Assembly (NCBI GenBank): GCA_041674285.1
Contig: JBAYVZ010000001.1
Coordinates: forward strand, 10,167-74,166
Direction of reading: 5' to 3'
Length of the DNA stretch: 64,000 nucleotides
Source of the DNA: Minisyncoccota bacterium
Lineage (GTDB): Bacteria; Patescibacteriota; Minisyncoccia; Phycocordibacterales; UBA9973
Position numbers and translations under genes: made by a program. The notes beneath the pieces were generated by a model. The model was not told where the DNA came from. It ran no database searches and saw nothing but the letters and a program-made list of their open reading frames with translations. This document shows positions 1,366-44,022 of this stretch, one piece after another (within the stretch, counting starts at the first letter, position 1; every line of letters starts with the position of its first letter).

Positions 1366-1382
1366 AGACATGAAATTTATAT

Positions 1383-3509: not shown

Positions 3510-3557
3510 TGTGTCGCGCTTTAAAGAATGATTGCGTGACGTGATTTCATTAAATCA

Positions 3558-4403: not shown

Positions 4404-4435
4404 ATATTTATTTTTTAATAAGTTATAATAAATTT

Positions 4436-5950: not shown

Positions 5951-6046
5951 AATATTTACAAGTTAAAATAAAAATGCCCTATTGGTTAAATAGGGTGTTT
6001 TTATTTGGTTTTTTTGTGTTTTTGCTGATATAATATGTACATATAG

Positions 6047-9000
6047 ATGAAAAATTTTGGACATAAAATAATTTCTTTGATTCTTTTGGTTGTACTACTG
6101 ATAACAAGTGGTTTTTTTGTTGATAATATAAAAAAAGCAAAAGCATCTAATTCAAAAACAGTTACAGTTACTTTTCGTACCACTCCAACTACTGCAACCG
6201 TTGCAAAAGCTCCACTGAAATATAATAAGGATTTTGCTTTTAGTTTTCAGATGGATGATGGTAGTGCGGACAACTACGAGAATGGTTTCAAATATATGTA
6301 TGGAGGTACTAGTTCATTATTAGAAGAAAGTTATGGTGGTAAATATTTTACAGATGGATCTGGACGATCTACTGCACTAGCTAGTAAGCCATTTCGTGGT
6401 GACTTTGTTTGGAATTCTCGAAACTATAGTTCAAGTTTTGTAGAGCTACACGCAGCCCTAAATACTCTTACTTGGACAAAACTCCTTGATGCGAATACTG
6501 CAGGATTTGACGTATTGAACCACAGTTGGTCTCATGCTGCTGTGACTACACTAGGGGATAATTATGTTTATGATTATCCTGCGCCACAAGGTGCTACTAC
6601 TCTGGAATCTGGTGGTTATGAATATGAACTTAGTCAAAACGAAGACGAGGTGGCTAGTCACGGGGTGACTATGGCACCACTTGCTATGGTTCCTCCGGCA
6701 GGAGATCATGGATATATAGATCCTGCTTTTTCTACTGGTTACAAGCTCGTAGCCAGTGAGAGTTCGTCTTTTACTTACTCAGGTGGGACGGTTGCTGTAG
6801 ATACGGGTGGTATGAATGTGACTTCGAGTGTAGATTTGGACCATCTTTTTGCTTATCGATATTTTTATGAAGATAGTAGATTTACCCCAAACACCGCTAC
6901 GGCTATCACTACACCCATAGACACACTTGCATCTCGTAGTCGTGGGTCAGATAAATACTGGGCTATTGGTTTTACTCATAGGACGAGTGTGGTCTCTGGT
7001 GGCCTATCAGAATCAAATTATGAATCATTGATGGACCATATTGCTAGTACTTATGGCCGTGATGGGGATGATTCTATCTGGATGGCTCCAGCCGAAGAGG
7101 TGTATGACTATTTATCCACAAAGCAAAATACAACAGTCTCTACAAACACAGTAGGGAATGTTATGACTATTACACTCGACACATCATCTGTACCAGCGTT
7201 GCGACGCGAGGCTCTATCTCTGGTTGTATCTTCTGATGCCGAGATTGAATCTATCGCATATGCTCCCGGAGAATTTACTGCTACTAGTTCAAATATAAAT
7301 ACTGGTCTGATTAATATGGATTGGGGTACTGTATATACAGCCAATGATTTTACCCGTGTAGAAACATTAGTATCCGCTGCTGAATCTAGTCGTGCGCAGT
7401 CTGACATCGATATCGCTACTACTTATGTCGCTATGTTGCCAGCAAGTGTTGAGAAAAATAATTTTACTAGTAGGTTAAATAATATTGTTGTTTTAGGTCA
7501 GCGATGGTTGATCAATCTGGGTATCAATAGTGCAGGCAAATTACAAGACACAGTAGTGGGTAGTGAGACAGAGAATCTTTGGTGGAATGAGATAAATTTA
7601 GTTTCCAATACTGGTTCAAATCAGACATCACCCATACTAGTAGACACTGCAAATGTAAATACTAGTCTTACTGTAGTTTTACCTCAATCTACTACTACAA
7701 ATTCTTGGGTAAAACCAGGAGCGGGTAGTGAGGGTCAGACTACTGTCACAGACGGTGATGGGGCTTATCCAAATGCTAAAATGCAAAAAGGTCTTTATAT
7801 CAGTAACGCAACAGAAACTTCACCTGTTGTTCAGATTCATAATCTTGACCCTGTAAAGAAATATAAGGTCACAATTTTTGGTTCTACAAAAAATTTAAAT
7901 AGCGGAAAAACTACGTCAAATATTGCAGTTCAGGGTGTATCTCAGGGTCCGTATCAGCATTATAATAATACAAGTAATACTTTAATATTTAGTTCCGTTT
8001 CTCCTACTGTTAGTGGGGTTATAGAGATTGTTATGACTCCTGTGAATCCAGCTTGGAGCGTGACTCCTATAAATGTCATCGATATCAGTGAGGTCACTCC
8101 TGCATTGCCAACTATAACTTTTAATTCTCAATCTCTACGCAGTCAGATTAGTGGGCTTGTTGATTACGGATATACTATTACTGATGACAATAGTGATCCT
8201 ATTTCCCTTATGAGCTATCAATACTCTGCCACCGGTGCATTTAATGGCGAGGAAGCGACTGCTACTCCAAAATCAAGCGACGGTCTTCATGATGGAATTT
8301 CTTCTTTGACTTCTTCTCCTGCGGGTGTTGCTCATGATTTCGTATGGGATGCTATTACTGATTTACTTGGACAAGAGGGAACTTTTTATCTAAGACTCCG
8401 ACCACAGAATCTATCCTCTGATGGGTCATATTCAATTGCTACTCCAGTCGCTCTCGATTTCAAGAACCCCGTACAGACTAGTATCGGCGCTACGACAACT
8501 TCATCTACTGCAAGTATCACTTGGACTACCCAAGAGATCGCGTATGGATTGGTGGAGTATGGTACTACGGATTCATATGGATCAAGTGTAGGATCCTTGT
8601 CATCTGGTACAGCGGTATTGAGTCATGATTTTGATTTGACTGGATTAGATGCTTGTACTACTTATCACTACCGTGTGTCTTCTCGAGATAGTGTGGGTAA
8701 CAATACCGTATCATCTGATCAGACGATGCATACAGCTGGATGCCCTGATCCTGTAGCTAGTCCTGTGGCTGGATTGTATAATGCGACTCAATCAGTGACA
8801 CTATCTGCTACTGGATCTTCTTCTATTCGCTATTCGACAACTAGTACCCCAGCTGATTGTTCTGCTGGTACTCTGTATAGTGGCGCGATATCTGTAGCAT
8901 CAGATACTACTATATATGTACGTGCTTGTGATATTTCAAACAATTCAACTACTGGTAGTTTCCTCTATACTATAGATTCCGAAGCCCCATCTACACCAGC

Positions 9001-10195
9001 TTCATCACCGTCGGATGGTACATACAACAGTACTCAGTCGGTCACACTATCAGCTGCAGGTTCTGATTCTATAAGATATTCTACATCGAGTACCCCAGCT
9101 GATTGTTCTGCTGGTACTCTATACAGTGGTGCTATCTCTGTGTCCTCTAATCAGACTATTTATGCTAGAGCATGTGATACCGCAGGTAATTCTTCTACGG
9201 CATCTTTTGCTTATGTTATAGATACTAGTGCCCCAGACACTGCGGTTGCTTCACCTAGTGCTGGTACATACAACAGCACTCAATCTGTGACCCTATCATC
9301 TTCTGGGTCAGATTCTATCCGCTATTCTACATCAGGCACACCATCTAACTGTTCTGCTGGTACTCTGTATAGTGGCGCGATATCTGTAGCATCAGATGCT
9401 ACTATATATGTACGTGCTTGTGACGGAGCAGGGAATGCCTCCACGACATCTTTTGCTTATGTGATAGACACTGAAGATCCTAGTATTCCCGTAGCGAGCC
9501 CCTCTGCTGGTACTCATGAGGGTACTCAATCAGTGACACTATCTGCTACTGGATCTTCTTCTATCCGCTATTCGACAACTAGTACTCCAGCTGATTGTTC
9601 TGCTGATACTCTATATGGTGGAGCGATAACTGTTGCTTCTGATACTACTTTATATGTGCTAGCTTGTGATGAGGCAGGGAATTCATCTACTGCATCTTTT
9701 GAATACGTAATAACAATAGATGATACTCCTCCAGCCCCTGTGAATGAATCCAGGAGATATGGTAGCTCATCTTCAAGCTCTTATTCATCTGCAAGTTCAA
9801 AAATATATTCACCTGTAATCGCTACCTCAAATGCTAGTGTTTTATCTGGGGTAGTTTCTAGCACGAATAGTCCAGATAATAAATATCCAATAGCTGTATC
9901 TATTAATACAGGTACTCCTAATGTTAAAAATAATATAGTTTTTTCTATTGAAAAATTACCAAATATTATTAAGATAAACAACTCAAATCCAAATATCAGA
10001 TCACTCCAAGAATTTTTAGTCGACTCATCGTCTGGACCCAAAGCTAAAGCTCTAGAGAAGCATGGTCTTACAAAGAATTTTGGATTACTCACAAAAGCCG
10101 CCCTTACTGAATGGCAAAAGGCGAATGGCCTAAAAGCTGATGGTATATTCGGACCAAAGACAAAAGCAAAAATAATTGAAATATTAAATAAATAA
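6047..10195 (+). CDS. Giant cell-surface protein with CE4/NodB-like polysaccharide deacetylase domain, FN3 domain, four tandem CHB_HEX_C-like Ig repeats and C-terminal PG_binding_1 domain
   Basis: Signal anchor; NodB-like motifs FQMDDGSAD and NHSWSHA. Four roughly 80-aa repeats (PVASPVAGLYNATQSVTLSATGSSSIRYSTTSTPADCSAGTLYSGAISVASDTTIYVRACD...). C-terminal LQEFLVDSSSGPKAKALEKHGLTKNFGLLTKAALTEWQKANGLKADGIFGPKTKAKI resembles the PG_binding_1 domain. Confidence 0.65.
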   Translation: MKNFGHKIISLILLVVLLITSGFFVDNIKKAKASNSKTVTVTFRTTPTTATVAKAPLKYNKDFAFSFQMDDGSADNYENGFKYMYGGTSSLLEESYGGKYFTDGSGRSTALASKPFRGDFVWNSRNYSSSFVELHAALNTLTWTKLLDANTAGFDVLNHSWSHAAVTTLGDNYVYDYPAPQGATTLESGGYEYELSQNEDEVASHGVTMAPLAMVPPAGDHGYIDPAFSTGYKLVASESSSFTYSGGTVAVDTGGMNVTSSVDLDHLFAYRYFYEDSRFTPNTATAITTPIDTLASRSRGSDKYWAIGFTHRTSVVSGGLSESNYESLMDHIASTYGRDGDDSIWMAPAEEVYDYLSTKQNTTVSTNTVGNVMTITLDTSSVPALRREALSLVVSSDAEIESIAYAPGEFTATSSNINTGLINMDWGTVYTANDFTRVETLVSAAESSRAQSDIDIATTYVAMLPASVEKNNFTSRLNNIVVLGQRWLINLGINSAGKLQDTVVGSETENLWWNEINLVSNTGSNQTSPILVDTANVNTSLTVVLPQSTTTNSWVKPGAGSEGQTTVTDGDGAYPNAKMQKGLYISNATETSPVVQIHNLDPVKKYKVTIFGSTKNLNSGKTTSNIAVQGVSQGPYQHYNNTSNTLIFSSVSPTVSGVIEIVMTPVNPAWSVTPINVIDISEVTPALPTITFNSQSLRSQISGLVDYGYTITDDNSDPISLMSYQYSATGAFNGEEATATPKSSDGLHDGISSLTSSPAGVAHDFVWDAITDLLGQEGTFYLRLRPQNLSSDGSYSIATPVALDFKNPVQTSIGATTTSSTASITWTTQEIAYGLVEYGTTDSYGSSVGSLSSGTAVLSHDFDLTGLDACTTYHYRVSSRDSVGNNTVSSDQTMHTAGCPDPVASPVAGLYNATQSVTLSATGSSSIRYSTTSTPADCSAGTLYSGAISVASDTTIYVRACDISNNSTTGSFLYTIDSEAPSTPASSPSDGTYNSTQSVTLSAAGSDSIRYSTSSTPADCSAGTLYSGAISVSSNQTIYARACDTAGNSSTASFAYVIDTSAPDTAVASPSAGTYNSTQSVTLSSSGSDSIRYSTSGTPSNCSAGTLYSGAISVASDATIYVRACDGAGNASTTSFAYVIDTEDPSIPVASPSAGTHEGTQSVTLSATGSSSIRYSTTSTPADCSADTLYGGAITVASDTTLYVLACDEAGNSSTASFEYVITIDDTPPAPVNESRRYGSSSSSSYSSASSKIYSPVIATSNASVLSGVVSSTNSPDNKYPIAVSINTGTPNVKNNIVFSIEKLPNIIKINNSNPNIRSLQEFLVDSSSGPKAKALEKHGLTKNFGLLTKAALTEWQKANGLKADGIFGPKTKAKIIEILNK
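8750..9700 (+). repeat. Four tandem roughly 240-bp intragenic repeats, near-identical at nucleotide level
   Basis: Blocks such as ctgtatagtggcgcgatatctgtagcatcagat(a/g)ctactatatatgtacgtgcttgtga recur at about 8870, 9110, 9360 and 9600. Confidence 0.7.
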
Positions 10196-10242
10196 AAAAT
10201 ACTACATCGTAGTATTTTTTATTACTATGATATAATATTTGA

Positions 10243-11862
10243 ATGAAAAAATATTTGGTGTCATTGTTTTCTTTTTTATTTTTAATTTTATTTGCATCAA
10301 ATGTGTATGCTTCAATCACTCCTATTATTACTTTGAGTGATACTAGCTTGGTGGCAGGCGAGACTGCTACTGTGACTTTTACTTTCACAGAAAATCCACT
10401 TTCTTTTACTGCTGATGATGTCACTGCTTCAAAGGGCATAATTTCTGATTTTACTGTCACGGGAGATCCTCTAGTTTATATTGCGACTTTTACCCCCACT
10501 TCTGAGATAATCGATGCATCAAATGTTATAACAATTGCATCAAAAGATACTATAAAAAAGTTTACAGGTCTACCTAGTTATTCTCGCACAGACCTTGCTT
10601 TTGATGGTACGAATATGTGGGTTACTTCTTATGTTGCAGAGAATAGTGTATCAAAGGTGGCTCCGGATGGTACTGTTACTACCTATACTGGTACAGGTAG
10701 TTGGCCAAAGGGGATTGAATTTGACGGTGTTAATATGTGGACTGCAAACTATCTTAGCCACAATGTATCCAAGATAACCCCAAGTGGTACCATCACAAAT
10801 TTTTCTGTAGCCGGTAATCCAGATGGTATAGCATTTGATGGCACAAATATGTGGACTGCAAACTATACTGGACATAGTGCTTCCAAGATTGAACCTAATG
10901 GCTCTGTTACTACTTATTCAGGTCAGGCAGGTAGTTACCCGTGGGATATTGCATTTGATGGTACAAATATGTGGACTGTAAACTATTATGGTGGCACCGT
11001 GACAAAATTCACACCCGAAGGTGTGGCTACTACATATAGTGGTATAGGTGACTGGGCTACTGGAATTGCATTTGACGGTACAAATATGTGGACTGTTAGT
11101 AATTATGAAAATCAAGTAGCAAAGATTGATCCCTCTGGTAATGTCACTACTTATTCTACTGGGGGTGGACTAGGTGCTGGTGGTTACGGATTGGTATTTG
11201 CAAATGATTATATCTGGGTTGCTGATAATGTTTCTAGTAGATTAATAAAGATGAATACTAGTGGTGTGATAGAGAAGACTTATTCTCTCGGTGTTTCTCC
11301 TTATAATGTCATCTCTGTAGATTCGGAGATCTGGATGACTTATAGTAGTGGTGGTATTGCTCGACTAGGTAGTAGTACTTCTGCTAATTCAGAAAATTAT
11401 GAAATAAATACAAGAACATACACATCATCATCTAGTTCTTCTTCTACCCACTACGGATGCAAGGATGAGTCAGCTATAAACTATGAATACTTTGCCGCGA
11501 GTGACCCGTCTCTGTGTAAATATGGAGAAAACCCCATTGTCGTAGCCACCAGCTCTCCTTCGGTATCTATGAATTCAAAAGAATTAATTTTGACTGTTAC
11601 TAGCGTATTTGAAAATAATATTTCTAAAATTAAAAATATTTTAAAATTTGGTTCGAATAATTCAGAAGTTGAGATGCTCCAGCAATTTTTAATTGATAAA
11701 AACATTGGTCCTGCGTCTGCATCTTTAAAAGATCACGGTACTACTTATGAATTTGGCCCTCTGACAAAATCTGCATTAGCTGAATGGCAAAAGGCGAGTG
11801 ATTTAAAGGCTGATGGTATTCTAGGTCCTCTGACAAAAGCTAAAATGCTGGGATCTCTATAA
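10243..11862 (+). CDS. Secreted Big-like plus 7-bladed beta-propeller (Vgb-lyase/NHL-like repeat) protein with C-terminal PG_binding_1 domain
   Basis: Signal peptide; seven repeats of the form FDGTNMWTANY...SKI.P.G.VTTY. C-terminal MLQQFLIDKNIGPASASLKDHGTTYEFGPLTKSALAEWQKASDLKADGILGPLTKAKM matches the PG_binding_1 domain of the preceding gene. Confidence 0.6.
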   Translation: MKKYLVSLFSFLFLILFASNVYASITPIITLSDTSLVAGETATVTFTFTENPLSFTADDVTASKGIISDFTVTGDPLVYIATFTPTSEIIDASNVITIASKDTIKKFTGLPSYSRTDLAFDGTNMWVTSYVAENSVSKVAPDGTVTTYTGTGSWPKGIEFDGVNMWTANYLSHNVSKITPSGTITNFSVAGNPDGIAFDGTNMWTANYTGHSASKIEPNGSVTTYSGQAGSYPWDIAFDGTNMWTVNYYGGTVTKFTPEGVATTYSGIGDWATGIAFDGTNMWTVSNYENQVAKIDPSGNVTTYSTGGGLGAGGYGLVFANDYIWVADNVSSRLIKMNTSGVIEKTYSLGVSPYNVISVDSEIWMTYSSGGIARLGSSTSANSENYEINTRTYTSSSSSSSTHYGCKDESAINYEYFAASDPSLCKYGENPIVVATSSPSVSMNSKELILTVTSVFENNISKIKNILKFGSNNSEVEMLQQFLIDKNIGPASASLKDHGTTYEFGPLTKSALAEWQKASDLKADGILGPLTKAKMLGSL

Positions 11863-11911
11863 AATGAAAATATTGTTGCATTTTTAATTATTTTGTGGTA
11901 TAATATACAGT

Positions 11912-13045
11912 ATGAAAATTGCTACAAATGTTACCCGAGAATATCTGGGTGGAATTACTCGTTCAAATATTAATTTTATGGATTCAATCCATGGAAAATA
12001 TGAAAATATTGTTGCTATTGAGTTAAATTCAAAAAGATATATTCAGGGTCCTAGGGTGTTCCATCACTTTTCTCCTGACTGGTTCCATCATCATATTGTG
12101 AATATACATGATATTCAATTGTTGAAATCTGTAAATTCTTCAAAAAATATAAAAGATTTAGAAAAAAAATATAGACCTGTAATAAATATAATAAAAGACA
12201 TTCTCAAAAAGGATAGACCTGATGTGATGTTTTTAAATGGCACATATTATATTCCTTGGCTGATGTCTATTGCTGCTCATGAATTAAAAATACCTATTGT
12301 TTTGAGATATGCGGGTGTGTACTCTCGTGAGACTGCAAATTTTAAACCCAAAGCTAGAAAAATATTTTCAGAAATTGAAAAATCTTTTCAAAAAAGAGCT
12401 AGTCATTTTATTTTTCCATCTCGAATTTGTCTGGATGTTGTAGAAAAAGAAGTAGCGAAAAAGGAAATTAAAAATACTTTTGTTATTCCGAATTCTTTTA
12501 GTATTCCAGATCAGAATTTTGTTTTCAATAGTGTCGAGAGGAGGATCGCTGCTGTTGGTAGATGGGATAAAATTAAAAACTTTGAGAAGTTTTTTGAAAT
12601 ACATAAATTGCTTAATAAACAAGGATGGAAACACGAATCTTCTTTTGTGACAGGTGATGCAAAGATTAAGTCGATGCCTAAAACAATAAATAGATTTGCC
12701 TCTATGACTCATGGCGAATTGCTTGAATTCTATTCCTCTCAGGGGCTGATTATTTGTCCTTCAATTTTTGAGACATTTGGTAATGTCGCCATGGAGGCTG
12801 TGTGCATGGGGGTTCCTGTATTGGTTAGTGATACTATGGGATGTTCTGAAATATTAAAAATTGCCGGATTGGATAGTATGGTTATCTCTTTTGATGACCC
12901 ACAAAAAGTAGCCGAGAGAGTCAAGAAATTGTGTGGACAGCAAATTCTGCCAAAGCAAATAAATAATCTAAGAAAAATTCTTAGTCCAAAGACTATAAAT
13001 GCTGAAATAATGTCCGTATTAAGAGATGCGGTGGTAAAGTATTAG
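11912..13045 (+). CDS. Glycosyltransferase, GT-B fold (family 4-like)
   Basis: C-terminal GT1 motif LIICPSIFETFGNVAMEAVCMGVPVLVSDTMGCSEIL. Preceded by an extended -10 promoter tggtataat. Confidence 0.7.
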   Translation: MKIATNVTREYLGGITRSNINFMDSIHGKYENIVAIELNSKRYIQGPRVFHHFSPDWFHHHIVNIHDIQLLKSVNSSKNIKDLEKKYRPVINIIKDILKKDRPDVMFLNGTYYIPWLMSIAAHELKIPIVLRYAGVYSRETANFKPKARKIFSEIEKSFQKRASHFIFPSRICLDVVEKEVAKKEIKNTFVIPNSFSIPDQNFVFNSVERRIAAVGRWDKIKNFEKFFEIHKLLNKQGWKHESSFVTGDAKIKSMPKTINRFASMTHGELLEFYSSQGLIICPSIFETFGNVAMEAVCMGVPVLVSDTMGCSEILKIAGLDSMVISFDDPQKVAERVKKLCGQQILPKQINNLRKILSPKTINAEIMSVLRDAVVKY

Positions 13046-13129
13046 TTCGTTTTACTAAATAAACCACACGAGATTGTCTCGTGTGGTTTATTATTTTGAA
13101 AATACCCTTATTTCTGATATATTATTGGG

Positions 13130-14239
13130 ATGTCACTATCCATAGGAATCGTAGGCCTACCAAACGTAGGAAAATCAACATTATTCAACGCTCTGACTAA
13201 AAAGAGTGTACCCGCAGAAAATTATCCATTCTGTACTATCGACCCATCTGTGGGTGTAGTTCCTGTGCCTGATGATCGTCTATATAAACTTGCAGATTTT
13301 TCAAAGACCAATCGTACGATTCCAGCAGTCGTAGAATTCGTAGATATCGCAGGTCTAGTAGAAGGTGCGAGTAAAGGTGAAGGGTTGGGTAATAAATTCC
13401 TAGCCAATATCCGCGAGACCGATGCCATACTACATATGGTGCGCCTGTTCCCATTATCTGGTGGGGACAAAGAGATAGCTCATGTCTATGGCAATGTAGA
13501 TCCAATGCGAGATATAGCAGTGATCAATCTCGAGCTGATCCTCGCTGATTTCGAGACTGTGACCAAGAGACTCAGTAATTTGCAAAAAGATGTAAAGAAA
13601 GGAGACAAAGAGGCTGTAATGGAAGATGATGTTCTTCGCCGTGTTGAAAAAGTATTAGAGGCGGGAAAACTCGCAAATAGCTTAGACTATACAGAAGAAG
13701 AATTTAAGAAAATCAAAAGTCTAAATCTACTGACTAGCAAGCCGATGATCTATGGATTAAATAAAAAAGCCGGAGTCAAAAATTTGGACGAAGAGAAACC
13801 TGAATATTTTAAAGAGATGACGGACGAGATTGTATCCGGTGGATCGCAGTGGATATTGATCGATGCCAAGATTGAAGATGAACTCAAGGATTTTGAAGGT
13901 GAGGAAAAAGAGACTTTTCGTCGTGAGCTCGGAGGTGAACATGATGGTATAAATGATCTGATTGGTGGATGCTACAAGCTATTAGGTTTGGATACATATT
14001 TTACGACAGGGGTAGAGGAGACTCGTGCATGGACTATCAAGACTGGTAGCACTGCACCAGTAGCGGGTATGGCCATACATACAGATTTCAAAGACAAATT
14101 CATCCGTGCTGAGGTAGTATTCTGGCGTGATTTACTAGACGCTGGCTCTATGGGTGAGGCTCGTGCAAAGGGTAAAGTCCGCACAGAAGGCAAGGAATAT
14201 ATAGTAAAAGATGGAGATGTAATGGAGTTTAAGGTATAG
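13130..14239 (+). CDS. ychF: Ribosome-binding ATPase YchF (Obg-family GTPase)
   Basis: IGIVGLPNVGKSTLFNALT P-loop, FCTIDP, VEFVDIAGLV, TGS-like C-terminus; length typical. Confidence 0.9.
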   Translation: MSLSIGIVGLPNVGKSTLFNALTKKSVPAENYPFCTIDPSVGVVPVPDDRLYKLADFSKTNRTIPAVVEFVDIAGLVEGASKGEGLGNKFLANIRETDAILHMVRLFPLSGGDKEIAHVYGNVDPMRDIAVINLELILADFETVTKRLSNLQKDVKKGDKEAVMEDDVLRRVEKVLEAGKLANSLDYTEEEFKKIKSLNLLTSKPMIYGLNKKAGVKNLDEEKPEYFKEMTDEIVSGGSQWILIDAKIEDELKDFEGEEKETFRRELGGEHDGINDLIGGCYKLLGLDTYFTTGVEETRAWTIKTGSTAPVAGMAIHTDFKDKFIRAEVVFWRDLLDAGSMGEARAKGKVRTEGKEYIVKDGDVMEFKV

Positions 14240-14358
14240 CTTATTTAAGAGATAATATATAGTATTACCACTTCTTGCCCCGTAGCAAATTTTATGCATT
14301 TGATAAAATTTTGCATTGGGGTAGTAAAAGATGGAGATGTAATGGAGTTCAAGGTATA
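14201..14358 (+). repeat. Direct duplication of the last 39 bp of ychF, bracketing an 80-bp hairpin-containing insert
   Basis: (a/g)tagtaaaagatggagatgtaatggagtt(t/c)aaggtatag at 14201-14239 and 14320-14358. Insert 14240-14319 contains attaccacttcttgccccgtagc and the stem cccc/gcaaatttt...aaaattttgc/gggg. Confidence 0.75.
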
Positions 14359-14825
14359 GTATTGCATTAATTTTTATTTTTGGTATATTAAAAAGATGAG
14401 ACAAAGTTTCAAAAACACAAACGTCATTTATATTAACCTGCTGAAATACCAGTTAGAGGGTTAATTTTTGTGTTTTTTTAAACTACTATAAAAGAACAAA
14501 AAAATGAGCTCTCTAACGATAGCTCATTTTTTTGTTCTTTTATTTTTGTACCTTTAAAATTTATCACAATGGAAACAAATCCATCCACACAAGAAGGAGA
14601 GACAACTCCTGTAGAAAAAAATGAAGTTGAATCTTCACAAAGAAAAGGCCCTTACGACTTAGGGAATTTGACTGTCGAAGAGAGCAACGATCTTCCTAAG
14701 ATTAAAAAGAATATGGAAGAACAAAAAAGAGGTTTTAACCATGATGGTGGTTGTTACTAATTTTTTGAAATTTAGAGATAAGACCCAGTATATATATGCT
14801 GGGTCTTTTATGTTATATTTAAAAT

Positions 14826-15161
14826 ATGCAAGATTTATTAAACCAAAAATGTGTGCCGTGCGAGGGCGGGGTAGATCCTATTAGCAGGTTTGATGCTGAG
14901 CTTATGCTCTCATACCACGTAAAAGACTGGGTGTTGAGCGAAGACTCAAAGAGTATATCCAAGAAATTTGAATTTAAAGATTTTAAACAAGCATTAGATT
15001 TTGTAAATAAAGTAGGGGACATAGCCGAGGGCGATGGACATCATCCAGATATCCATCTGACAGATTATAAATTCGTCACTATAAATCTCTCTACTCATGC
15101 TATAGGTGGTCTATCTCAGAATGATTTTATTGTCGCTGCAAAGGTTAATAACATAAAATAG
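14826..15161 (+). CDS. Pterin-4a-carbinolamine dehydratase (PCD/DCoH)
   Basis: Size about 110 aa and the signature EGDGHHPDI. Confidence 0.75.
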   Translation: MQDLLNQKCVPCEGGVDPISRFDAELMLSYHVKDWVLSEDSKSISKKFEFKDFKQALDFVNKVGDIAEGDGHHPDIHLTDYKFVTINLSTHAIGGLSQNDFIVAAKVNNIK

Positions 15162-15360
15162 CTTCCATAAAAGCTACAAGTAATATGAATGAATGAGTAA
15201 CAAAATAGTTCTTGAGAAAAGTCTTGCGCAGGAGATTAGAAAATAAATGAGTTTACGAATATTATTTTCTTGATCGACGAGCAGAGCAAATTCTCACTAG
15301 AGAATTATGTGTGCTTTTCGAGAGAAGCTATTTGTGAATCATTTAGTCATTAAGAATAAT

Positions 15361-15957
15361 ATGAACAAAGATTGGAAAAAAGTTGAAAAGGTTTTGATGG
15401 ATGGAGGAGTTGCTGTGATTCCTACTGATACTATTTACGGTATCGTGGCGCGAGCTTTCGATAAGAGGGCAGTAGAGCGTGTATATTCTGTGCGTGGGCG
15501 TGATGAGAAAAAGCCATGCATAATATTGATATCTGATTTCGACGATTTAAATAAACTAGGTATAAAGGTAAATGTTTTATGCGATGGCATAAAAGCTTTA
15601 CCTTTTTTAAGGAATAACTGGCCGGGTCAGGTGAGTGTGATACTACCTTGCAATTTAAAGAAATTTGAATATTTACATCGTGGTACAAATACACTAGCCG
15701 TGAGAATGATTGGAAGCAGGAATCAGCATCTTTTGAATCTAATTAAAAAAGTGGGGCCAATCATTGCCCCGTCTGCAAATCCCCAAGGTTTGCCACCGGC
15801 TCGCAATAGAAAGGAATCTCGAAAATATTTTGGTAATAGAGTAGATGCCTATGTATGCTATGGTACGAGAGAGGGTAGGCCCTCGACTCTCGTGGATCTA
15901 TCAAAATGTAAAATAGAAATTTTAAGACAAGGTAAAACAAAAATAAAACACCCGTAG
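15361..15957 (+). CDS. tsaC: L-threonylcarbamoyladenylate synthase TsaC/YrdC family (alternative upstream start at 15307)
   Basis: GGVAVIPTDTIYGIVARAFDKRAVERVYSVRGRDEKKPCIILI matches the YrdC/Sua5 core. The 15361 ATG gives a typical N-terminal spacing to the VIPTDT motif. Confidence 0.7.
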   Translation: MNKDWKKVEKVLMDGGVAVIPTDTIYGIVARAFDKRAVERVYSVRGRDEKKPCIILISDFDDLNKLGIKVNVLCDGIKALPFLRNNWPGQVSVILPCNLKKFEYLHRGTNTLAVRMIGSRNQHLLNLIKKVGPIIAPSANPQGLPPARNRKESRKYFGNRVDAYVCYGTREGRPSTLVDLSKCKIEILRQGKTKIKHP

Positions 15958-15962
15958 GTGTT

Positions 15963-16697
15963 TTATTTTTTCTTTTTATTCACTAGTTCTGCGTGTTGCT
16001 TTTTTAGGTCAGCAATCTCGGTAATTAAAAGTCCGAGAGTCTTTTCTATTTGGGTCAACATCTTGTCGTCATTTGTTTCTTCTTCTGTTTGTTCTTCCAT
16101 ATCTTCTGACATCTCATCCATATCTTTTTCAATTTCTCCGACATCTTCTTGGATTTCTTCGACGTCTTCTTGAATTTCATCTACATCTTTCTGGATTTCA
16201 TCCACATCTTTTTCAATTTCTCCGACATCCTCCTGAATCTCCTCAACATCCTCTTGAATCTCTTCAACATTTTCTTGAATTTCCTCGATATCTCGAGACA
16301 CTGCATGGAGCTTGCGAGCTTGTCTATTCACGCTCATCTGGATAAAGATAGAAAGATATATGGCCTCGAGGGATACTATGGTTGTGACTACTAGGAGTAT
16401 ATTGCTTAGGTCAAAACCTATAAAATAAAGCATAAAAGACATCATGAATAGTGCAGTGTGAACTAGAATAGAATTTGTAGAACCTATAGAATGAGTTGCT
16501 TTGATAGCAAAACGTTCAATTATATCAGCTTGTCGCTTTTTTAGTTCTCTTAGCATATGGTTTATTACGACGAGTGAGGAGCATGTGAACATGTACTCAT
16601 GTTCACAATGTCCGAGTCGAAGTCTTATTAAAGGGTTAATACATTCTTTATTATAAACCATATTTTTGCTATAATCTAGTGTATTATGGATAATCAA
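15963..16697 (-). CDS. Membrane protein (DUF1003/COG4420-like core) with C-terminal acidic heptad-repeat coiled coil
   Basis: Two TM helices followed by IFIQMSVNRQARK (SxNRQ motif), then about 9 tandem EEIQEDV/GEIEKDV heptads. Confidence 0.45.
   Translation of the reverse strand: MIIHNTLDYSKNMVYNKECINPLIRLRLGHCEHEYMFTCSSLVVINHMLRELKKRQADIIERFAIKATHSIGSTNSILVHTALFMMSFMLYFIGFDLSNILLVVTTIVSLEAIYLSIFIQMSVNRQARKLHAVSRDIEEIQENVEEIQEDVEEIQEDVGEIEKDVDEIQKDVDEIQEDVEEIQEDVGEIEKDMDEMSEDMEEQTEEETNDDKMLTQIEKTLGLLITEIADLKKQHAELVNKKKK
16080..16300. repeat. 21-bp tandem repeat array (about 9-10 units) encoding the EEIQEDV heptads
   Basis: Units such as ttcttggatttcttcgacgtc recur in tandem. Confidence 0.75.
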
Positions 16698-17243
16698 AAT
16701 AATCTACAACAAAGTAAGGATTCAAAGCCACACTCTTTTATCAAATTAGCTGTTATTGTCGCTATAGTCATCGTATCTAATTTGTTTTTTAACTACGCTG
16801 TATCTCTCATCTTCAATGAGCCTGTAAATGAAGCATACAAGACTGCTCCTCAAGTCGTAGAGCCAATTCTCACAAAAGAAAAGTGTCTATCTGTGGGTGG
16901 TCAGTGGACAGAGAGTGTCTATCCAAATGAAAAGGGTAGGACAGAGATTACTGGGTCTTGCTATGCAGAATATTCTAAACAAAAAGTCTACGATGCTGCG
17001 ATGAAGATTTTTAATCGTAATGTATTTATCACTCTCGTTGTCATAGGTGTACTCATGCTGGTGCTGGGTTCATTTATCGGGGTATCACTATTGTCTATTG
17101 CTTTTGCTTGGAGTGGGATACTTTCACTTATTATCGCATCTATGCGTTATTGGTCCGATGCTGACACCTGGGCAAAATTAATCATACTCGGACTTGCCTT
17201 GTGCCTACTGATTTGGATTACAATAAAAAGATTTAATAAATAG
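16686..17243 (+). CDS. Hypothetical membrane protein (N-terminal TM plus C-terminal 3-TM region)
   Basis: ORF with clear hydrophobic segments, divergent from the upstream gene; no recognisable family. Confidence 0.4.
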   Translation: MDNQNNLQQSKDSKPHSFIKLAVIVAIVIVSNLFFNYAVSLIFNEPVNEAYKTAPQVVEPILTKEKCLSVGGQWTESVYPNEKGRTEITGSCYAEYSKQKVYDAAMKIFNRNVFITLVVIGVLMLVLGSFIGVSLLSIAFAWSGILSLIIASMRYWSDADTWAKLIILGLALCLLIWITIKRFNK

Positions 17244-17249
17244 AAAAAA

Positions 17250-19724
17250 ATGAAAGAATACGATCACAATAAAATTGAAAAGAAATGGCAGAAAGAGTGG
17301 AGTGACGGTGATGTGTACAAGACTCTCGATTCAAAAAAAGCTAAAGCAAAAAAGTTAAAGCCTTTTTATGTTCTAGATATGTTCCCTTATCCATCAGGTG
17401 CAGGGCTCCATGTTGGTCATCCACGTGGGTATATCGGTAGCGATGTGTATTCTCGAGTAAAGCGTATGCAGGGGTACAATGTCCTACATCCTATGGGTTA
17501 TGATGCTTTTGGTCTACCTGCAGAGCAGTACGCTATCGAGCACAAGATACACCCAAGAAAAGCTGTAGATATCAATGTCAAAACATTTGAAAAACAACTC
17601 TCAATTATAGGTCTGTCATACGACTGGTCTCGCCGTGTAAATACTACAGACCCAGAATACTATCGATGGACTCAGTGGATATTCCTACAACTTTTTAATT
17701 CTTATTACGACACAAAGAAAAATAAAGCAGAAAATATAGATAGTTTAGTAAAAGTTTTTGAAAAAAGTGGCAATGCAAAAGTAAATGCGCACCATACATG
17801 TAAAATAATCTTCTCTGGCAAAGAGTGGAAAAATTTTGACGCACTAAAGAGGCAGGAGATTCTGATGAATTATAGATTGACGTATGAAGCCGAGAGTGAA
17901 GTGAACTGGTGTGAAGGTCTCGGTACAGTGCTTGCCAATGATGAGATTGTAGATGGCAAGGATGGCAAGCAAGTATCCGAGCGTGGAGGTTTCCCCGTAG
18001 AAAAAATGATTATCAAGCAATGGTCTATGCGTATCACTGCGTATGCAGATCGTTTGATCAAGGGTCTCGACACATTAGAATGGTCCAGTCACATAAAGGA
18101 AATTCAAAAGAACTGGATAGGTGAGAGTGTGGGGAGTGAGATTGAATTTAAAATAAAAGATAACGACGAAAAGATAAAAGTATTCACTACACGTGCCGAT
18201 ACTCTATTTGGTGTGACTTATGTAGTGCTGGCTCCAGAGAGTATTTTGATAGAAAAATTATCTGATCAAATAAAAAATAAAAAAGAAATAGAGAAATATA
18301 TAAGTGACGTAAAGAATAAGCCAGAAGAGGATAGAAAGAGTGCGGAGAAAGAAAAAACTGGCGTAGTCCTCGAAGGTATATATGCTATCAATCCTGCAAA
18401 CAATGAAGAGGTTCCTGTGTGGGTGGCTGACTATGTATTGTCTTCATACGGTACAGGTGCAGTGATGGCAGTGCCTATGTATGACGAGAGAGATAATCAG
18501 TTTGCTGTTAAATACAACCTTCCTATAATCGACAGGCCTCTTGTAGATATAAAAGAAATTACAGAAATGGTTGGAGGAAAAATAGTCACAAAATATAAGA
18601 TGCGTGATGCTATTTTTGCACGTCAGAGATACTGGGGTGAGCCGATTCCATTAAGGCGTGATAGAGATGGAATTATTTCGTCTGTAAAAAAGCTACCATT
18701 AGAACTTCCAAAAGTCACTTCATATGAACCAACAGGAAAAGCAGAGGGACCACTCGCAGGTGTGAAGGCATGGGTTAAAGATGGCTACGAGACAAATACT
18801 ATGCCAGGATGGGCAGGGTCTTCTTGGTACTTCCTACGATACATGGATCCAAAGAATGGTAAGAGTTTAGTGGGTGAAAATGAGATAAATTACTGGAAAA
18901 ATGTAGATGTGTATGTGGGTGGTGCAGAGCATGCTACAGGTCATCTACTATACTCTCGTTTCTGGCATAAATTCCTAAAGGATATAGGAGTTGCCAAGAC
19001 AGAGGAGCCATTCAAAAAAATGAAGAATCAGGGTATGATTCTGGCCTCAGATAATCGCAAGATGAGTAAAAGATGGGGTAATGTGATCAATCCAGATGAG
19101 ATAGTAAAGACTTATGGAGCAGACACTCTACGAGTATACGAGATGTTCATGGGACCATTTGACCAGAGTCTTCCTTGGAGTACAGAGAGTATCATAGGCT
19201 CACGCAGATTCATCGAGCGTGTGTGGCGCTTGTCAGCAAAAGTATCTAATAGTAAAACAAGTTCAGAATTAGAAAAAGTTCTACACAAGACAATCAAGAA
19301 AGTAAATGAAGATATCGAAAATTTTGCTTTCAATACAGCGATTTCGTCTATGATGATTTTTGTAAATGAAGCAGAAAAGAACGAGTGCATCTCTGTATCT
19401 GATTTCAAGATGTTCCTGCAGATTTTAGCACCATTTGCTCCGCATTTTACAGATGAATTGTGGCACGAGATGGGGGAGCAGAAGTCTATTCATATCTCTG
19501 GCTGGCCAAAATATAACCCAAAGAAAATAATTGAAGATAGTATGAAAATAGTTGTCCAAGTTAATGGCAAAGTTCGCTCCGAGCTCTCTATCTCAATAGA
19601 TGCCACAGACGATCAAATCAAGGAAATAGCCTTGAAAGACAAGGTTATAATATCTTGGGTGAACGGAGCTGATATAAAGCGAGTAATTTACGTAAAAGGT
19701 AGACTCGTGAATATAGTTGTCTAG
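17250..19724 (+). CDS. leuS: Leucyl-tRNA synthetase
   Basis: HIGH motif PYPSGAGLHVGHPRGY, KMSKS motif KMSKRWGNV, editing-domain insert, 824 aa. Confidence 0.92.
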   Translation: MKEYDHNKIEKKWQKEWSDGDVYKTLDSKKAKAKKLKPFYVLDMFPYPSGAGLHVGHPRGYIGSDVYSRVKRMQGYNVLHPMGYDAFGLPAEQYAIEHKIHPRKAVDINVKTFEKQLSIIGLSYDWSRRVNTTDPEYYRWTQWIFLQLFNSYYDTKKNKAENIDSLVKVFEKSGNAKVNAHHTCKIIFSGKEWKNFDALKRQEILMNYRLTYEAESEVNWCEGLGTVLANDEIVDGKDGKQVSERGGFPVEKMIIKQWSMRITAYADRLIKGLDTLEWSSHIKEIQKNWIGESVGSEIEFKIKDNDEKIKVFTTRADTLFGVTYVVLAPESILIEKLSDQIKNKKEIEKYISDVKNKPEEDRKSAEKEKTGVVLEGIYAINPANNEEVPVWVADYVLSSYGTGAVMAVPMYDERDNQFAVKYNLPIIDRPLVDIKEITEMVGGKIVTKYKMRDAIFARQRYWGEPIPLRRDRDGIISSVKKLPLELPKVTSYEPTGKAEGPLAGVKAWVKDGYETNTMPGWAGSSWYFLRYMDPKNGKSLVGENEINYWKNVDVYVGGAEHATGHLLYSRFWHKFLKDIGVAKTEEPFKKMKNQGMILASDNRKMSKRWGNVINPDEIVKTYGADTLRVYEMFMGPFDQSLPWSTESIIGSRRFIERVWRLSAKVSNSKTSSELEKVLHKTIKKVNEDIENFAFNTAISSMMIFVNEAEKNECISVSDFKMFLQILAPFAPHFTDELWHEMGEQKSIHISGWPKYNPKKIIEDSMKIVVQVNGKVRSELSISIDATDDQIKEIALKDKVIISWVNGADIKRVIYVKGRLVNIVV

Positions 19725-41188: not shown

Positions 41189-41216
41189 TTTTGACTTAAT
41201 TTTAAAAAGTGGTAAT
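41189..41216 (+). promoter_or_regulatory. Promoter-like element ttgacttaattttaaaaagtggtaat (copy 1)
   Basis: TTGACT -35, 16-17 nt spacer, TGgTAAT extended -10; identical copy at 41910-41937. Confidence 0.55.
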
Positions 41217-41249
41217 CTGTGAAAAAAAGAAACTTTAAAACAAATAATT

Positions 41250-41840
41250 ATGGAAAATCAAAAACCTAAAATCAACGTCTCAAAGACATCTAATGATTCT
41301 GATTATTCTCTTGGTAGAGCTCTAAATTTTTGTTATGAATATGACAATTATACTAATTCTCTCCAAGCTAGAGTTGATCGCCTCAAGGCTAAAAAACAAG
41401 AAGAAGTTTTTACTGCTTTGATTAATGAAATTAAAAATAAGATGCCTGAAAAATTTAAGAAATTTTTTGAGTTGAATTTTTCTTTTGACTTGCAGTATAA
41501 CCCTAATGATCCAAAACATAATCTTTTCAAGATGATACGTGATCATATGTATGGATTTATCGGAATTACTTTGTACCGTATCGAGACTATCAGTATTAAA
41601 AATTCTGGATTTGTAAATTTAGAAGATTTTTTGAATTCATTGTCACTTTTAAATGATTCACTCGATGGTGTTTTTAAGGTTGGATGTCATCAATCAGATA
41701 TGTCGAAAGAAGAAATTAAAAGAATGCAAATGATTTCTTTGTCTTTTTGGCTCGATAAGCCAGATTATATTAGAGAAATGAATAGAAAATCTATGGATGA
41801 TTTATTTAATGCACAAGAAAAACTTAGTAAAAAAAGTTAG
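41250..41840 (+). CDS. Hypothetical protein (cassette cargo 1)
   Basis: 196-aa ORF between the shared promoter and terminator repeats; no recognisable domain. Confidence 0.4.
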   Translation: MENQKPKINVSKTSNDSDYSLGRALNFCYEYDNYTNSLQARVDRLKAKKQEEVFTALINEIKNKMPEKFKKFFELNFSFDLQYNPNDPKHNLFKMIRDHMYGFIGITLYRIETISIKNSGFVNLEDFLNSLSLLNDSLDGVFKVGCHQSDMSKEEIKRMQMISLSFWLDKPDYIREMNRKSMDDLFNAQEKLSKKS

Positions 41841-41845
41841 GTAAT

Positions 41846-41896
41846 TAAAACCCCAAATTCCCGTTTGCTTTCAGAGATGAAAGTGAACGGGTTTTT
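41846..41896 (+). terminator. Intrinsic terminator (cassette terminator copy 1)
   Basis: aaattcccgtttgctttcagagatgaaagtgaacgggtttttt: nested stem cccgtt/aacggg plus ctttc/gaaag and a T-run. Confidence 0.7.
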
Positions 41897-41909
41897 TATT
41901 TATATTATG

Positions 41910-41937
41910 CTTTGACTTAATTTTAAAAAGTGGTAAT
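41910..41937 (+). promoter_or_regulatory. Promoter-like element (copy 2 of ttgacttaattttaaaaagtggtaat)
   Basis: 27/27 identity with 41190-41216. Confidence 0.55.
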
Positions 41938-41963
41938 GTAAAAAGAAAAACTTAACAAAAGCC

Positions 41964-42788
41964 ATGGAAATAAAACAAAAGATTTTGAAAGAGCCTGTGC
42001 TTATCTCTGGTAAGGATTACTGGGGAAGGTCAGCATGGATTAAATTTTCTCCGTCCGTTCGTTCTGGGTGGTGGTGGAAAACCAAAGATGGGGTGATTCC
42101 TATTAATCACAAAATTGCAGAAAAAAGACGCGGGCAAATATCTCTTTGTTCGGGCTCAGAATCTATCGCAGTATGGGAGCATATAGGTGTTTTGAGATTT
42201 TTAGGATTTGATTGTGTTGAAGTAGAATCATCGCCTTGGGCTCCGTATGATGGATCCGCGCTTATTTACTACGAACACTTGGAGGGTAAATTTGCTGTTA
42301 GTGGCAGCAATATCCCCTGGGTCAGGATAACCGAAGATGTAAAGAGTGCGTATGATCCAAATAAGAGAGATGGTTATGTGAAGATCAGTCCTGTATTGTC
42401 TGATGGAAATGAAGTTGCTGATTTATGCTTGAGTGTTGAGGCAGGATGGTCTCCTCTCCCGAGCATAAATAGAACTGTGTTTGCTTCTGATCAGGATTAT
42501 CTATTAAGTATCTTGGGTGTAAAAGCCCAGGGCTATCCTCATTATCTTTATAATGTTGCAAAAGTTGCATCAAAACTTGGCTACCCTCATTTCAAGGAGC
42601 TAACATGGTTGGAAGATCATGGGCCAGAAAAAACCGCTGAACTATTTTTTAGCCATCGTGTTCTGGATTTGTTGGGATGCATGAGTTTGTGTCACCATGA
42701 ATACTTGCCTGTTGGTCATGTCGAGTCTCGTTTTGCTGGTCACGAAGTAGACCTCAGCGCAGTAAAAAAGTGTTTTGTATATTTATAA
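41964..42788 (+). CDS. LpxC-family (UDP-3-O-acyl-GlcNAc deacetylase-like) zinc deacetylase homologue
   Basis: VWEHIGVLRFLGFDCVEVESSPWAPYDGSALIY parallels the LpxC motif TVEHL.AL.G.GIDN..IE....E.PImDGSA. C-terminal HRVLDLLGCMSL parallels the LpxC HxxxD zinc motif (HKxLDxxGDL). Confidence 0.55.
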   Translation: MEIKQKILKEPVLISGKDYWGRSAWIKFSPSVRSGWWWKTKDGVIPINHKIAEKRRGQISLCSGSESIAVWEHIGVLRFLGFDCVEVESSPWAPYDGSALIYYEHLEGKFAVSGSNIPWVRITEDVKSAYDPNKRDGYVKISPVLSDGNEVADLCLSVEAGWSPLPSINRTVFASDQDYLLSILGVKAQGYPHYLYNVAKVASKLGYPHFKELTWLEDHGPEKTAELFFSHRVLDLLGCMSLCHHEYLPVGHVESRFAGHEVDLSAVKKCFVYL

Positions 42789-42794: not shown

Positions 42795-42852
42795 TTTAGA
42801 GCCCTAAATTCCCGTTTGCTTTCAGAGATGAAAGTGAGCGGGATTTTTTTAT
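42795..42852. terminator. Intrinsic terminator (cassette terminator copy 2; also terminates convergent tsaD)
   Basis: ctaaattcccgtttgctttcagagatgaaagtgagcgggattttttt: 2 mismatches versus copy 1. Confidence 0.7.
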
Positions 42853-44022
42853 TGGTTTTTTAAGATAATTAAAGTATCCTGCGATGGCTATCATCAGGCC
42901 GTTGTCAGTAGAAAGTTTTTTTGTAGGGAAGTATACTTTAATTTTTAATTTTTCATTTTTAATTTTTAAACCTACTTTCTCTCTCAATACTTTTTGTAAA
43001 TGCGTATTTGCAGATACTCCACCACCCACTATCAGCGTCTGGATTTTATATTTTTCTATGGCCTTGATTGTCTTGTATGTCAGGACTTCTACTATTGAAT
43101 CTTCTACTTCACAAGCTATTTCTTTTTTTTGTTCATCATTTATATCTCCAAGGTCGCGTATCAAATACAGCACTGCAGTCTTGAGTCCAGAGAATGAAAA
43201 ATCAAAATCTCCAGAGTGTATCATTGGGCGAGGTAATTTAATTTTATTCTCCTCTTGAGGAGTACCCGCCAATGCGGGGGAGGTGGATGTATTTGAATTC
43301 TTTCGATGCTCTGCTGCCAATTTAGAAATCTCTGGTCCGCCGGGGTACGGCAGGGATAGCATGCGGGCTACCTTATCAAAAGCTTCACCTGCTGCATCGT
43401 CACGAGTTTGACCGATGACTTTGTATTTGCCGAAATCTTTCATGAGGACTAGCTCTGTATGTCCACCAGATACGAGCAGAGAAAGAGCAGGGAACTGTAT
43501 CTCTGGAATTTTCCCCTCATCTGTCATCAATATAGATAATATATGCCCCTCCATGTGGTTCACAGGTAGTAGTGGGAGATCCCATGCGATAGACAGTGCT
43601 TTTGCAAAGCTGATACCTACCCATAGTGCTGGCTCGAGGCCTGGACCTACTGTCACAGCTATGGCATCTATCTTGGGCTTGGCTATCTTAGATATGGAAT
43701 TTATGAATGTTTCTGGTAAGTCATTTTCTCTTGAGAGTATCTCTTTTATTTTTACCTCATCAATTTTTAATTTTTCATTTTTAATTTTTAATTTAAATAG
43801 TCCTGCATCTTTGAGTGCTTTTTCAAAAACGGGTACGATATTCTTGCCGTGCTCGCGCTTTGCCATCATAGGGAATACGCCACCATAGTTCGTATGGATG
43901 GGTTGGGATTGTATTGCATTTGCCATCATGTGCAGACAGTGACTACTCTTTCCACGCTTCCGCGCGTCGAGTATCGCTATTCCTGTATCGTCGCAAGATG
44001 TTTCTATTGCTAGTATCTTCAT
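42796..44022 (-). CDS. tsaD: tRNA N6-adenosine threonylcarbamoyltransferase TsaD (Kae1/Gcp family) with Lys-rich insertions
   Basis: N-terminal MKILAIETSCDDTGIAILD, ...GGVFPMMAKREH..., ...LLVSGGHTELVLM..., C-terminal ...GGGVSANTHLQ...; 408 aa versus about 340 typical. Confidence 0.9.
   Translation of the reverse strand: MKILAIETSCDDTGIAILDARKRGKSSHCLHMMANAIQSQPIHTNYGGVFPMMAKREHGKNIVPVFEKALKDAGLFKLKIKNEKLKIDEVKIKEILSRENDLPETFINSISKIAKPKIDAIAVTVGPGLEPALWVGISFAKALSIAWDLPLLPVNHMEGHILSILMTDEGKIPEIQFPALSLLVSGGHTELVLMKDFGKYKVIGQTRDDAAGEAFDKVARMLSLPYPGGPEISKLAAEHRKNSNTSTSPALAGTPQEENKIKLPRPMIHSGDFDFSFSGLKTAVLYLIRDLGDINDEQKKEIACEVEDSIVEVLTYKTIKAIEKYKIQTLIVGGGVSANTHLQKVLREKVGLKIKNEKLKIKVYFPTKKLSTDNGLMIAIAGYFNYLKKPIKKSRSLSSLKANGNLGL

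Follow-up and report, generated by a model that had tools for sequence, protein, structure and literature searches.

We describe here a populous, conserved family of LpxC-like proteins, apparently with an intact catalytic centre, in organisms that have no visible lipid A pathway; a literature search found no description of this family. The member at hand is encoded on the forward strand, at 41964..42788 of the window (the whole 64-kb stretch of DNA that was analysed), by an ORF of 274 aa that runs from ATG to TAA. The protein is identical to WC089_00215, a 'MAG: hypothetical protein' from a 230-kb contig of a Candidatus Paceibacterota bacterium, and we use that name for it. Judging from its sequence and predicted structure, we consider that WC089_00215 is probably (at a rough probability of 0.6) an active cytoplasmic zinc N-deacetylase, the substrate of which would be a non-acylated amino-sugar derivative from cell-wall metabolism or salvage.

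Family membership and relationship to LpxC

As a single sequence, WC089_00215 is only just recognizable as a relative of LpxC. The profile check proposed in an earlier note on this DNA, against Pfam PF03331 (LpxC), gave a marginal score of 27.8 bits, the gathering cutoff being 27, and the strongest part of the match was confined to the C-terminal 55 residues. Zero matches were obtained at E≤10 to NCBIfam, including the LpxC equivalog (TIGR00325 / PRK1318x), a single-sequence search of the PDB returned noise only, and the Pfam models of the NagA, PIG-L/LmbE and CE4 deacetylases gave zero matches. The PADLOC defence-protein models matched neither WC089_00215 nor the adjacent 196-aa ORF.

The relationship is far stronger when the family is considered as a whole. 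A word-indexed protein search gave few members, and the family size was taken from HMMER instead: scanned exhaustively, 1.84 billion representatives yielded at least 276 clusters at 50 % identity with E≤1e-3, and 206 of these reached E<1e-10. Among the 150 matches listed, nearly all were approximately 260–300 aa long and aligned over almost their full length. At least four loci were found in a GTDB scan and at least seven in a metagenome scan, numbers that undercount the family as both scans used a single narrow peptide pattern. The family alignment contains 145 members that, apart from two close relatives, are 23–42 % identical to WC089_00215. Searched against the PDB, the 145-member profile aligned end to end (residues 20–271) with the solved LpxCs, reaching E=5e-18 for LpxC of Aquifex aeolicus and E=2e-17 for that of E. 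coli; individual PF03331 matches were found for 122 of the 145 members, with a best E of 7e-16. An AF2 model of WC089_00215 built on the same alignment (pLDDT 97.3, pTM 0.94) gave a Foldseek list in which the top 50 PDB structures were all LpxC, with TM 0.71–0.80, rmsd of about 4 Å, 15–19 % identity and E of about 1e-16. WC089_00215 belongs to the LpxC superfamily, and given the family profile the homology is far beyond chance. The proposal in the earlier note of an LpxC homologue is thus borne out by a genuine LpxC fold with zinc and catalytic motifs in place, and the structure prediction that it recommended led, in all of the top 50 matches, to LpxC.

Membership of the superfamily is to be distinguished from being LpxC. 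The NCBIfam LpxC equivalog gave weak matches in only 43 of the 145 members (best E=1.9e-10); by this profile the family members fall short of the equivalog and would not count as LpxC sensu stricto. The family HMM scored 187 members at 180–300+ bits, compared with about 64 bits for E. coli LpxC and four LpxCs of canonical type. Because of this gap, we regard the proteins as a discrete family within the LpxC superfamily rather than as fringe LpxCs. The earlier note had also called the protein short: its length of 274 aa was exact, and it is not unusual, as the family median is 277 aa and the Aquifex LpxC chains have 267–282 aa. Relative to LpxC of the E. coli type, a C-terminal tail is the sole missing part.

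Chromosomal setting and distribution

The gene is monocistronic in the window and convergent with tsaD. Upstream of it on the forward strand lies a predicted promoter-like element of the extended −10 type (TTGACT, 16 nt, TGG-TAATGT; 41911..41949), with a second copy at 41190–41228. An exact 26-mer of this element (repeat family D2) occurs twice, against zero occurrences expected by chance. On the 3′ side of the gene, a terminator-like hairpin with a T-run (42796..42848 on the forward strand, stem 42810–42843) overlaps the last codons of tsaD, and it too has a second copy, at 41845–41897. These duplicated sequences, a promoter element of 39 nt and a terminator of 53 nt, bracket not the enzyme gene but an adjacent forward-strand ORF of 196 aa immediately upstream (41250..41840), which had no match in Pfam, NCBIfam or PADLOC.

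The nature of this arrangement becomes clear from comparison with locus L012, in which an enzyme 75 % identical to WC089_00215 is found in the order ValRS, one promoter, enzyme, one terminator, TsaD. The 196-aa ORF is absent from L012; the difference between the two loci is a 721-bp insertion consisting of this ORF and one extra copy each of the promoter and the terminator. The 'mobile-looking cassette' perceived in the earlier note owes its look to the duplicated elements that flank the 196-aa ORF. Since L012 is syntenic and lacks the ORF, we conclude that the enzyme gene, flanked by ValRS and TsaD just as it is in L012, occupies a conserved chromosomal site, and that the ORF is a recent, lineage-specific insertion separate from the enzyme. 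Location of the enzyme gene in a mobile cassette is ruled out by this synteny. No integrase or transposase was found near the gene, and the GC content of the flanking 2-kb windows (0.35–0.41) falls inside the range of 0.30–0.42 found over the window.

The neighbours of the gene in the window are ValRS, TsaD, a cytidylate-kinase-like protein, MurE, MurD, a third Mur ligase, a PBP, GreA and AspRS, with the Mur ligases at a distance of 2–9 kb. Genes for peptidoglycan synthesis and division are abundant (MurJ, DivIC, the three Mur ligases, the PBP and an SLT), and no lipid A gene was present among the window ORFs that were of at least 110 aa and scanned or that carried precomputed Pfam labels. The absence of a visible lipid A pathway, as read earlier from the letters alone, therefore holds for these ORFs, and no lpx gene was found within 10 kb of the family gene in about 20 related loci.

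Across these roughly 20 independent loci the family gene is almost always monocistronic, has no conserved operon partner, and has different neighbours in almost every one. It lies between rseP-frr and holB-mreB in L007 and L010, between mraZ-rsmH-ftsL-PBP-murE and AspRS-GreA in L001, and between ClpP and trigger factor in the Saccharibacteria locus L009. PNPase adjoins it in L011, DprA and SerRS are its neighbours in L015, and PurE and PurC in L018; in L013, a gene for a ZIP zinc transporter overlaps its 3′ end. A GH3 glycosidase of the NagZ type and an LRR protein precede it, and Ddl follows it, in L024 and L025. Pyrophosphohydrolase genes are found just upstream on the same strand, MazG in L023 and NUDIX in L014, and in L014 the family gene is followed by an ArgJ-type acetyl-transfer context. 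Neighbours related to the cell wall and to amino sugars are in modest excess across the loci, which is suggestive; the proximity of WC089_00215 to peptidoglycan genes may equally be due to chance in small CPR genomes dense in housekeeping genes.

A further observation concerns the markers beside the family gene, which adjoins dcw genes in the window and in L001, and rseP-frr in L007 and L010. On the E. coli map, and in classical diderms, those same markers flank lpxC and lpxD-fabZ-lpxA-lpxB. To see in this a vestigial synteny is speculation: the dcw and the frr-rseP arrangements are each found in two lineages, with small genomes dense in housekeeping genes.

All of the named family members that we found are from CPR bacteria (Paceibacterota, Taylorbacteria, Nomurabacteria and Saccharibacteria), and all are annotated as 'hypothetical' or 'uncharacterized'. 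The assignment of the window itself to the CPR, raised as a possibility in the earlier note, is confirmed by the identity of its protein to that of the Paceibacterota MAG. Some members appear to be non-CPR, on the sole evidence of their GC content of 0.56–0.66 and the 5.7-Mb length of one contig: L014 lies on this contig (GC 0.56–0.66), L003 and L004 on contigs of 65 % GC. Another locus classed as non-CPR, L020, is on a contig that also carries FabA/Z and a SWIB protein.

Catalytic centre and substrate-binding positions

For residue mapping, the sequence of E. coli LpxC, verified with PDB 4MQY, was aligned onto the family HMM with hmmalign, and the roles of LpxC residues were taken from published work (PMC13333357, PMC11472313, PMC9842644). 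In LpxC, zinc is bound by His79, His238 and Asp242, Glu78 is the general base and His265 is a catalytic residue (PMC13333357). The zinc ligands correspond in WC089_00215 to H73 (conserved in 144/145 members), H231 (143/145) and D235 (143/145), the general base to E72 (142/145), and the catalytic histidine to H260 (144/145). These residues are located in three forward-strand segments: E72-H73, encoded at 42177..42182; H231-R-V-L-D235-L-L-G238-C239, encoded at 42654..42680, in which R232 takes the place of LpxC K239 and C239 that of D246; and G259-H260-E-V-D263, encoded at 42738..42752, where G259 is equivalent to LpxC G264. The motif P94-Y-D-G-S-A99, cited in the earlier note, is present at 42243..42260, so that the LpxC core and the C-terminal zinc motif, H231-RVLD-LLG238, were both read correctly from the sequence.

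P94 is invariant in the 145-member alignment, and E72, H73, G190, W215, H231, R232, D235, G238, S255, G259, H260 and D263 are nearly so. The positions at which E. coli LpxC tolerates mutation least have been listed from deep mutational scanning (PMC9842644), and of these H79, D242, G264 and H265 are all kept by the family. Comparison of WC089_00215 with its 75 %-identical relative in L012 gave dN 0.165 and dS 1.76, an omega of about 0.09 in which dS is near saturation.

Our observations are consistent with a model in which WC089_00215 would be a soluble zinc-dependent amide hydrolase with the two-domain LpxC fold. The zinc would be held by His73, His231 and Asp235. Glu72 would activate the zinc-bound water for attack on an N-acetyl carbonyl, as in LpxC, with His260 assisting protonation or stabilization of the oxyanion. 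The predicted substrate would be a non-acylated N-acetyl-hexosamine derivative, either a sugar phosphate or a nucleotide sugar, of cell-wall amino-sugar metabolism or salvage. The LpxC oxyanion position T191 is Ala in WC089_00215 (A188) and is divided in the family between Thr (57), Ser (27), Pro (29) and Ala (28; n=145). Given this Ala, and with no D246 partner for the catalytic histidine, catalysis may differ in detail from that of LpxC or be weaker.

In contrast to the catalytic residues, those that hold the substrate in LpxC have largely been replaced. Three positions are essential in the E. coli enzyme: G210, which lines the acyl groove and tolerates Ala and Gly only; D246, which orients H265 and tolerates only Asp; and F192, which binds substrate and tolerates Phe, Ile, Met, Trp and Tyr (PMC9842644). 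At the G210 position WC089_00215 has Y207 and the family Trp (124/145); at D246 it has C239, with Ala in 85/145 members and Asp in 8/145; at F192 it has Q189, and Gln is found in 91/145. The replacement of these essential positions argues that the substrate is different from that of LpxC. On this point the earlier note is strongly supported.

Residues of the hydrophobic passage for the acyl chain are altered as well. The tunnel residues of E. coli LpxC are L18, L62, I198, C207, F212 and V217 (PMC11472313). Their equivalents in WC089_00215 are Y19 (Phe or Tyr in the family), G57 (family Arg, 85/145), L195, K204, F210 (family His, 56/145) and W215 (family Trp, 144/145), and A215 of the acyl groove is replaced by L213 (Val or Ile in the family). 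Insert II of WC089_00215 retains its length and beta-alpha-beta pattern, and within it the forward-strand segment Y207-P208-H209 ... W215 (42582..42608; family consensus W-P-H ... W) replaces the passage-lining G210-S211 ... V217 of LpxC. The signature of the family as a whole is Q-G-W-P ... G-W-P-H ... W where LpxC has G-G-S. With Trp, Tyr and Arg in place of the acyl-groove residues, there is unlikely to be room for a long acyl chain. We infer that the groove is occluded, a reading made from aligned positions in a region of low identity. The different acylated amino sugar proposed in the earlier note is disfavoured by the same residues.

The part of the site that would receive the sugar is partly preserved. 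In LpxC, the loop R190-T191-F192-G193 and K239 contact the glucosamine (PMC9842644). The loop is partly retained in WC089_00215 as K187-A188-Q189-G190 (42522..42533, forward strand; Thr to Ala, Phe to Gln). In the family it reads [K/R]-x-Q-G, with G190 in 133/145 members, Gln for Phe and a variable Thr position. Arg232 stands for K239, and is Arg in 140/145 members. The equivalents of K143 and K262, which we take to be the UDP-contacting lysines of LpxC, are changed in the family. A hexosamine-type head group remains plausible as a ligand of WC089_00215.

No segment of the protein is hydrophobic (maximum KD19=1.15). As it has neither a signal peptide nor a membrane segment, WC089_00215 is most likely soluble and cytoplasmic. 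No evidence was found for the host-derived substrate that had earlier been raised as a possibility, and an enzyme of this kind would act in the cytoplasm.

Alternative readings and known systems

The alternative that we take most seriously, while still thinking it unlikely, is an active zinc amidohydrolase that acts on something other than an amino sugar, such as an N-acetylated amino acid, an acetyl-polyamine, another small metabolite, or an amide in a peptide or protein. Preservation of the catalytic core alongside change at most substrate-contact positions, including F192 to Gln and the equivalents of K143 and K262, is what such an enzyme might show. No sugar-metabolism gene is consistently adjacent, and the ArgJ-type acetyl-transfer context after the L014 member fits the same reading. 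It accounts less well for the partly kept glucosamine loop with its common G190, for the Arg that so regularly stands for K239, and for the peptidoglycan or amino-sugar neighbours at several loci. The family also conserves many Trp and Tyr residues (W36, W38, W92, Y95, W207 and W215), of a kind typical of carbohydrate or nucleotide stacking. We therefore prefer the amino-sugar deacetylase.

A second possibility adds a history to the amino-sugar deacetylase. Here the family would be a neofunctionalized LpxC descendant, surviving from a CPR lineage that gave up its LPS outer membrane or never finished building one, and now deacetylating GlcNAc-phosphate or UDP-GlcNAc in peptidoglycan salvage. 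The dcw and rseP-frr neighbours described above could be read as hints of such a past, and as a complete account we consider it doubtful. If true, it would provide the first function outside lipid A for the LpxC fold, and the family would be a molecular fossil with a bearing on whether the CPR ancestor was diderm. Descent from a working lipid A pathway would make it a data point in the debate over diderm or monoderm ancestry (PMC8871954).

That WC089_00215 is a true LpxC, a UDP-3-O-acyl-GlcNAc deacetylase in a cryptic lipid A-like pathway, is very unlikely. The fold, the complete set of zinc and catalytic residues, the PF03331 score just over threshold and the retained length and beta-alpha-beta topology of Insert II would all suit a true LpxC, as would the fact that our inspection covered 64 kb of the genome. 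Against this, the Tyr or Trp, Cys or Ala, and Gln found at G210, D246 and F192 are none of them tolerated by E. coli LpxC (PMC9842644). WC089_00215 lacks an NCBIfam LpxC match, its relatives match weakly where they match at all, and a wide score gap separates the family from canonical LpxC. Besides the lack of lpx genes in the window, CPR genomes have been reported to be without lpxC, kdsA, lipid A genes and fatty-acid synthesis (PMC5220378). With the small residues of the acyl room, the histidine-orienting Asp and the Phe of the sugar loop all replaced, we infer that WC089_00215 is not an enzyme of lipid A synthesis.

Least probable of all is that the LpxC scaffold has lost catalysis and survives as a relic, or has been kept for binding or regulation: pseudoenzymes normally lose catalytic or metal residues, and although the Asp partner of the catalytic His is gone, the T191 position is variable (Ala here) and the context shows no functional partner, the retention of the five core residues in >97 % of the 145 members, despite only 23–42 % identity to WC089_00215, and the strong purifying selection indicated by the low omega argue that this is a working metalloenzyme.

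The existence of so populous and conserved a family, apparently with its catalytic centre intact, where no lipid A pathway is visible has implications for how LpxC homologues are interpreted. LpxC has been treated as a single-function enzyme: a marker of lipid A synthesis, a major antibiotic target and a marker gene for the LPS outer membrane. LPS cannot be inferred from a weak PF03331 match, and there is probably a second chemistry or substrate for the LpxC fold. The envelope of CPR bacteria and their salvage of precursors are poorly understood, and a cytoplasmic deacetylase of this family may act in their cell-wall amino-sugar metabolism.

Among known systems, LpxC itself (EC 3.5.1.108; PF03331; PDB 4MDT, 1P42) is the closest. 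WC089_00215 shares with it the two-domain beta-alpha-alpha-beta fold (TM 0.76–0.80); the His/His/Asp zinc site, the Glu general base and the second catalytic His, which fall at equivalent places in the alignment; and Insert I and Insert II of similar length and secondary structure. Both proteins are soluble and cytoplasmic. The family differs from LpxC in its low identity (15–19 %), its own motif set and the lack of the C-terminal tail; in having Trp, Tyr and Arg in the acyl passage, with D246 replaced by Ala or Cys, F192 by Gln and K239 by Arg; and in being found in organisms that have no visible lipid A pathway.

Several amino-sugar N-deacetylases, namely NagA (GlcNAc-6-P), the PIG-L/LmbE enzymes (MshB, BshB) and the CE4 deacetylases, also use metal-activated water. 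Their folds are unrelated to that of WC089_00215, and they would be its functional analogues if its substrate is a non-lipid GlcNAc derivative. An orphan 'lpxC2' has been described in a few monoderm Bacillota (Desulfotomaculum acetoxidans and Peptococcaceae DCMF) as a possible remnant (PMC11448272). It is a singleton LpxC homologue in bacteria without the LPS and outer-membrane gene set (PMC11448272), and in this it resembles WC089_00215, beside which no lipid A gene is visible in the window ORFs covered. The Bacillota proteins are described as paralogues, whereas the family reported here comprises at least 276 clusters with a motif signature of its own.

A lineage-specific insertion and the convergent tsaD gene

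The comparison of loci revealed a lineage-specific insertion of 721 bp beside the LpxC-like gene (window 41964-42788, forward strand), which is missing at L012, the locus whose enzyme is 75 % identical to the window protein. The insertion, located within 41190-41949, carries an ORF of 196 aa on the forward strand (41250-41840) that had no match in Pfam, NCBIfam or PADLOC, and includes a second copy of both the promoter-like 39-mer and the 53-nt terminator hairpin of the LpxC-like gene.

On the other side, the LpxC-like gene converges with tsaD (42796-44022, reverse strand), which encodes an unusually long TsaD of 408 aa. An exact, A/T-rich direct repeat of 30 nt occurs twice inside tsaD (42940-42969 and 43762-43791); each copy specifies the peptide LKIKNEKLKI, and the two copies fall in distinct insertions within the protein. 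The LpxC-like gene's terminator hairpin (42810-42843) falls inside the final ~16 codons of tsaD, which leaves two readings: a hairpin that acts in both directions, or a TsaD whose C-terminus, as annotated, represents read-through.

Predicted surface proteins at the start of the window

The region 54-11862 encodes a series of large predicted surface proteins, one of 1382 aa, with cohesin, dockerin, bacterial Ig, endosialidase-chaperone and peptidoglycan-binding domains, as well as four chitobiase/hexosaminidase C-terminal domains. These proteins may be the means by which an episymbiont attaches to its host or targets the host wall.

Genomic settings and domain fusions of LpxC homologues

The neighbours of family members (homologues of the LpxC-like enzyme at other loci) varied. 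Downstream of the family member at L018, positions 11641-18946 encode a SMODS/AGS_C nucleotidyltransferase, an SMC_N/AAA_21 ATPase and an N6/N4 DNA methyltransferase, a gene group that is likely to be a defence island. At L013 (380-2012), a ZIP-family zinc transporter gene lies downstream of the LpxC-like gene and overlaps it by 11 nt, a suggestive pairing that fits a zinc enzyme.

At L014 (8263-10789), in a high-GC genome of 5.7 Mb, the family member comes after ArgJ and a NUDIX hydrolase, the three genes being co-oriented and spaced by 63 and 28 nt; this family member also adjoins a fragmented secA. An MBL-fold hydrolase, MazG and a small ORF precede the family member at L023 (8308-10819). 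That nucleotide pyrophosphohydrolases lie upstream at both loci, in lineages unrelated to each other, may be a hint of a substrate linked to a nucleotide. The most direct amino-sugar and peptidoglycan setting among the loci seen is that of L024 (524-5620) and L025 (6784-11892), where the family member is flanked on one side by a GH3 (NagZ-type) glycosidase and an LRR protein, and on the other by a D-Ala-D-Ala ligase.

Lastly, the word-indexed protein search also brought up deltaproteobacterial proteins of 423 aa (P0158-P0161) in which an LpxC domain (PF03331) is joined to a response-regulator receiver domain (PF00072). These proteins are annotated as plain LpxC, and may represent LpxC under phosphorylation control.
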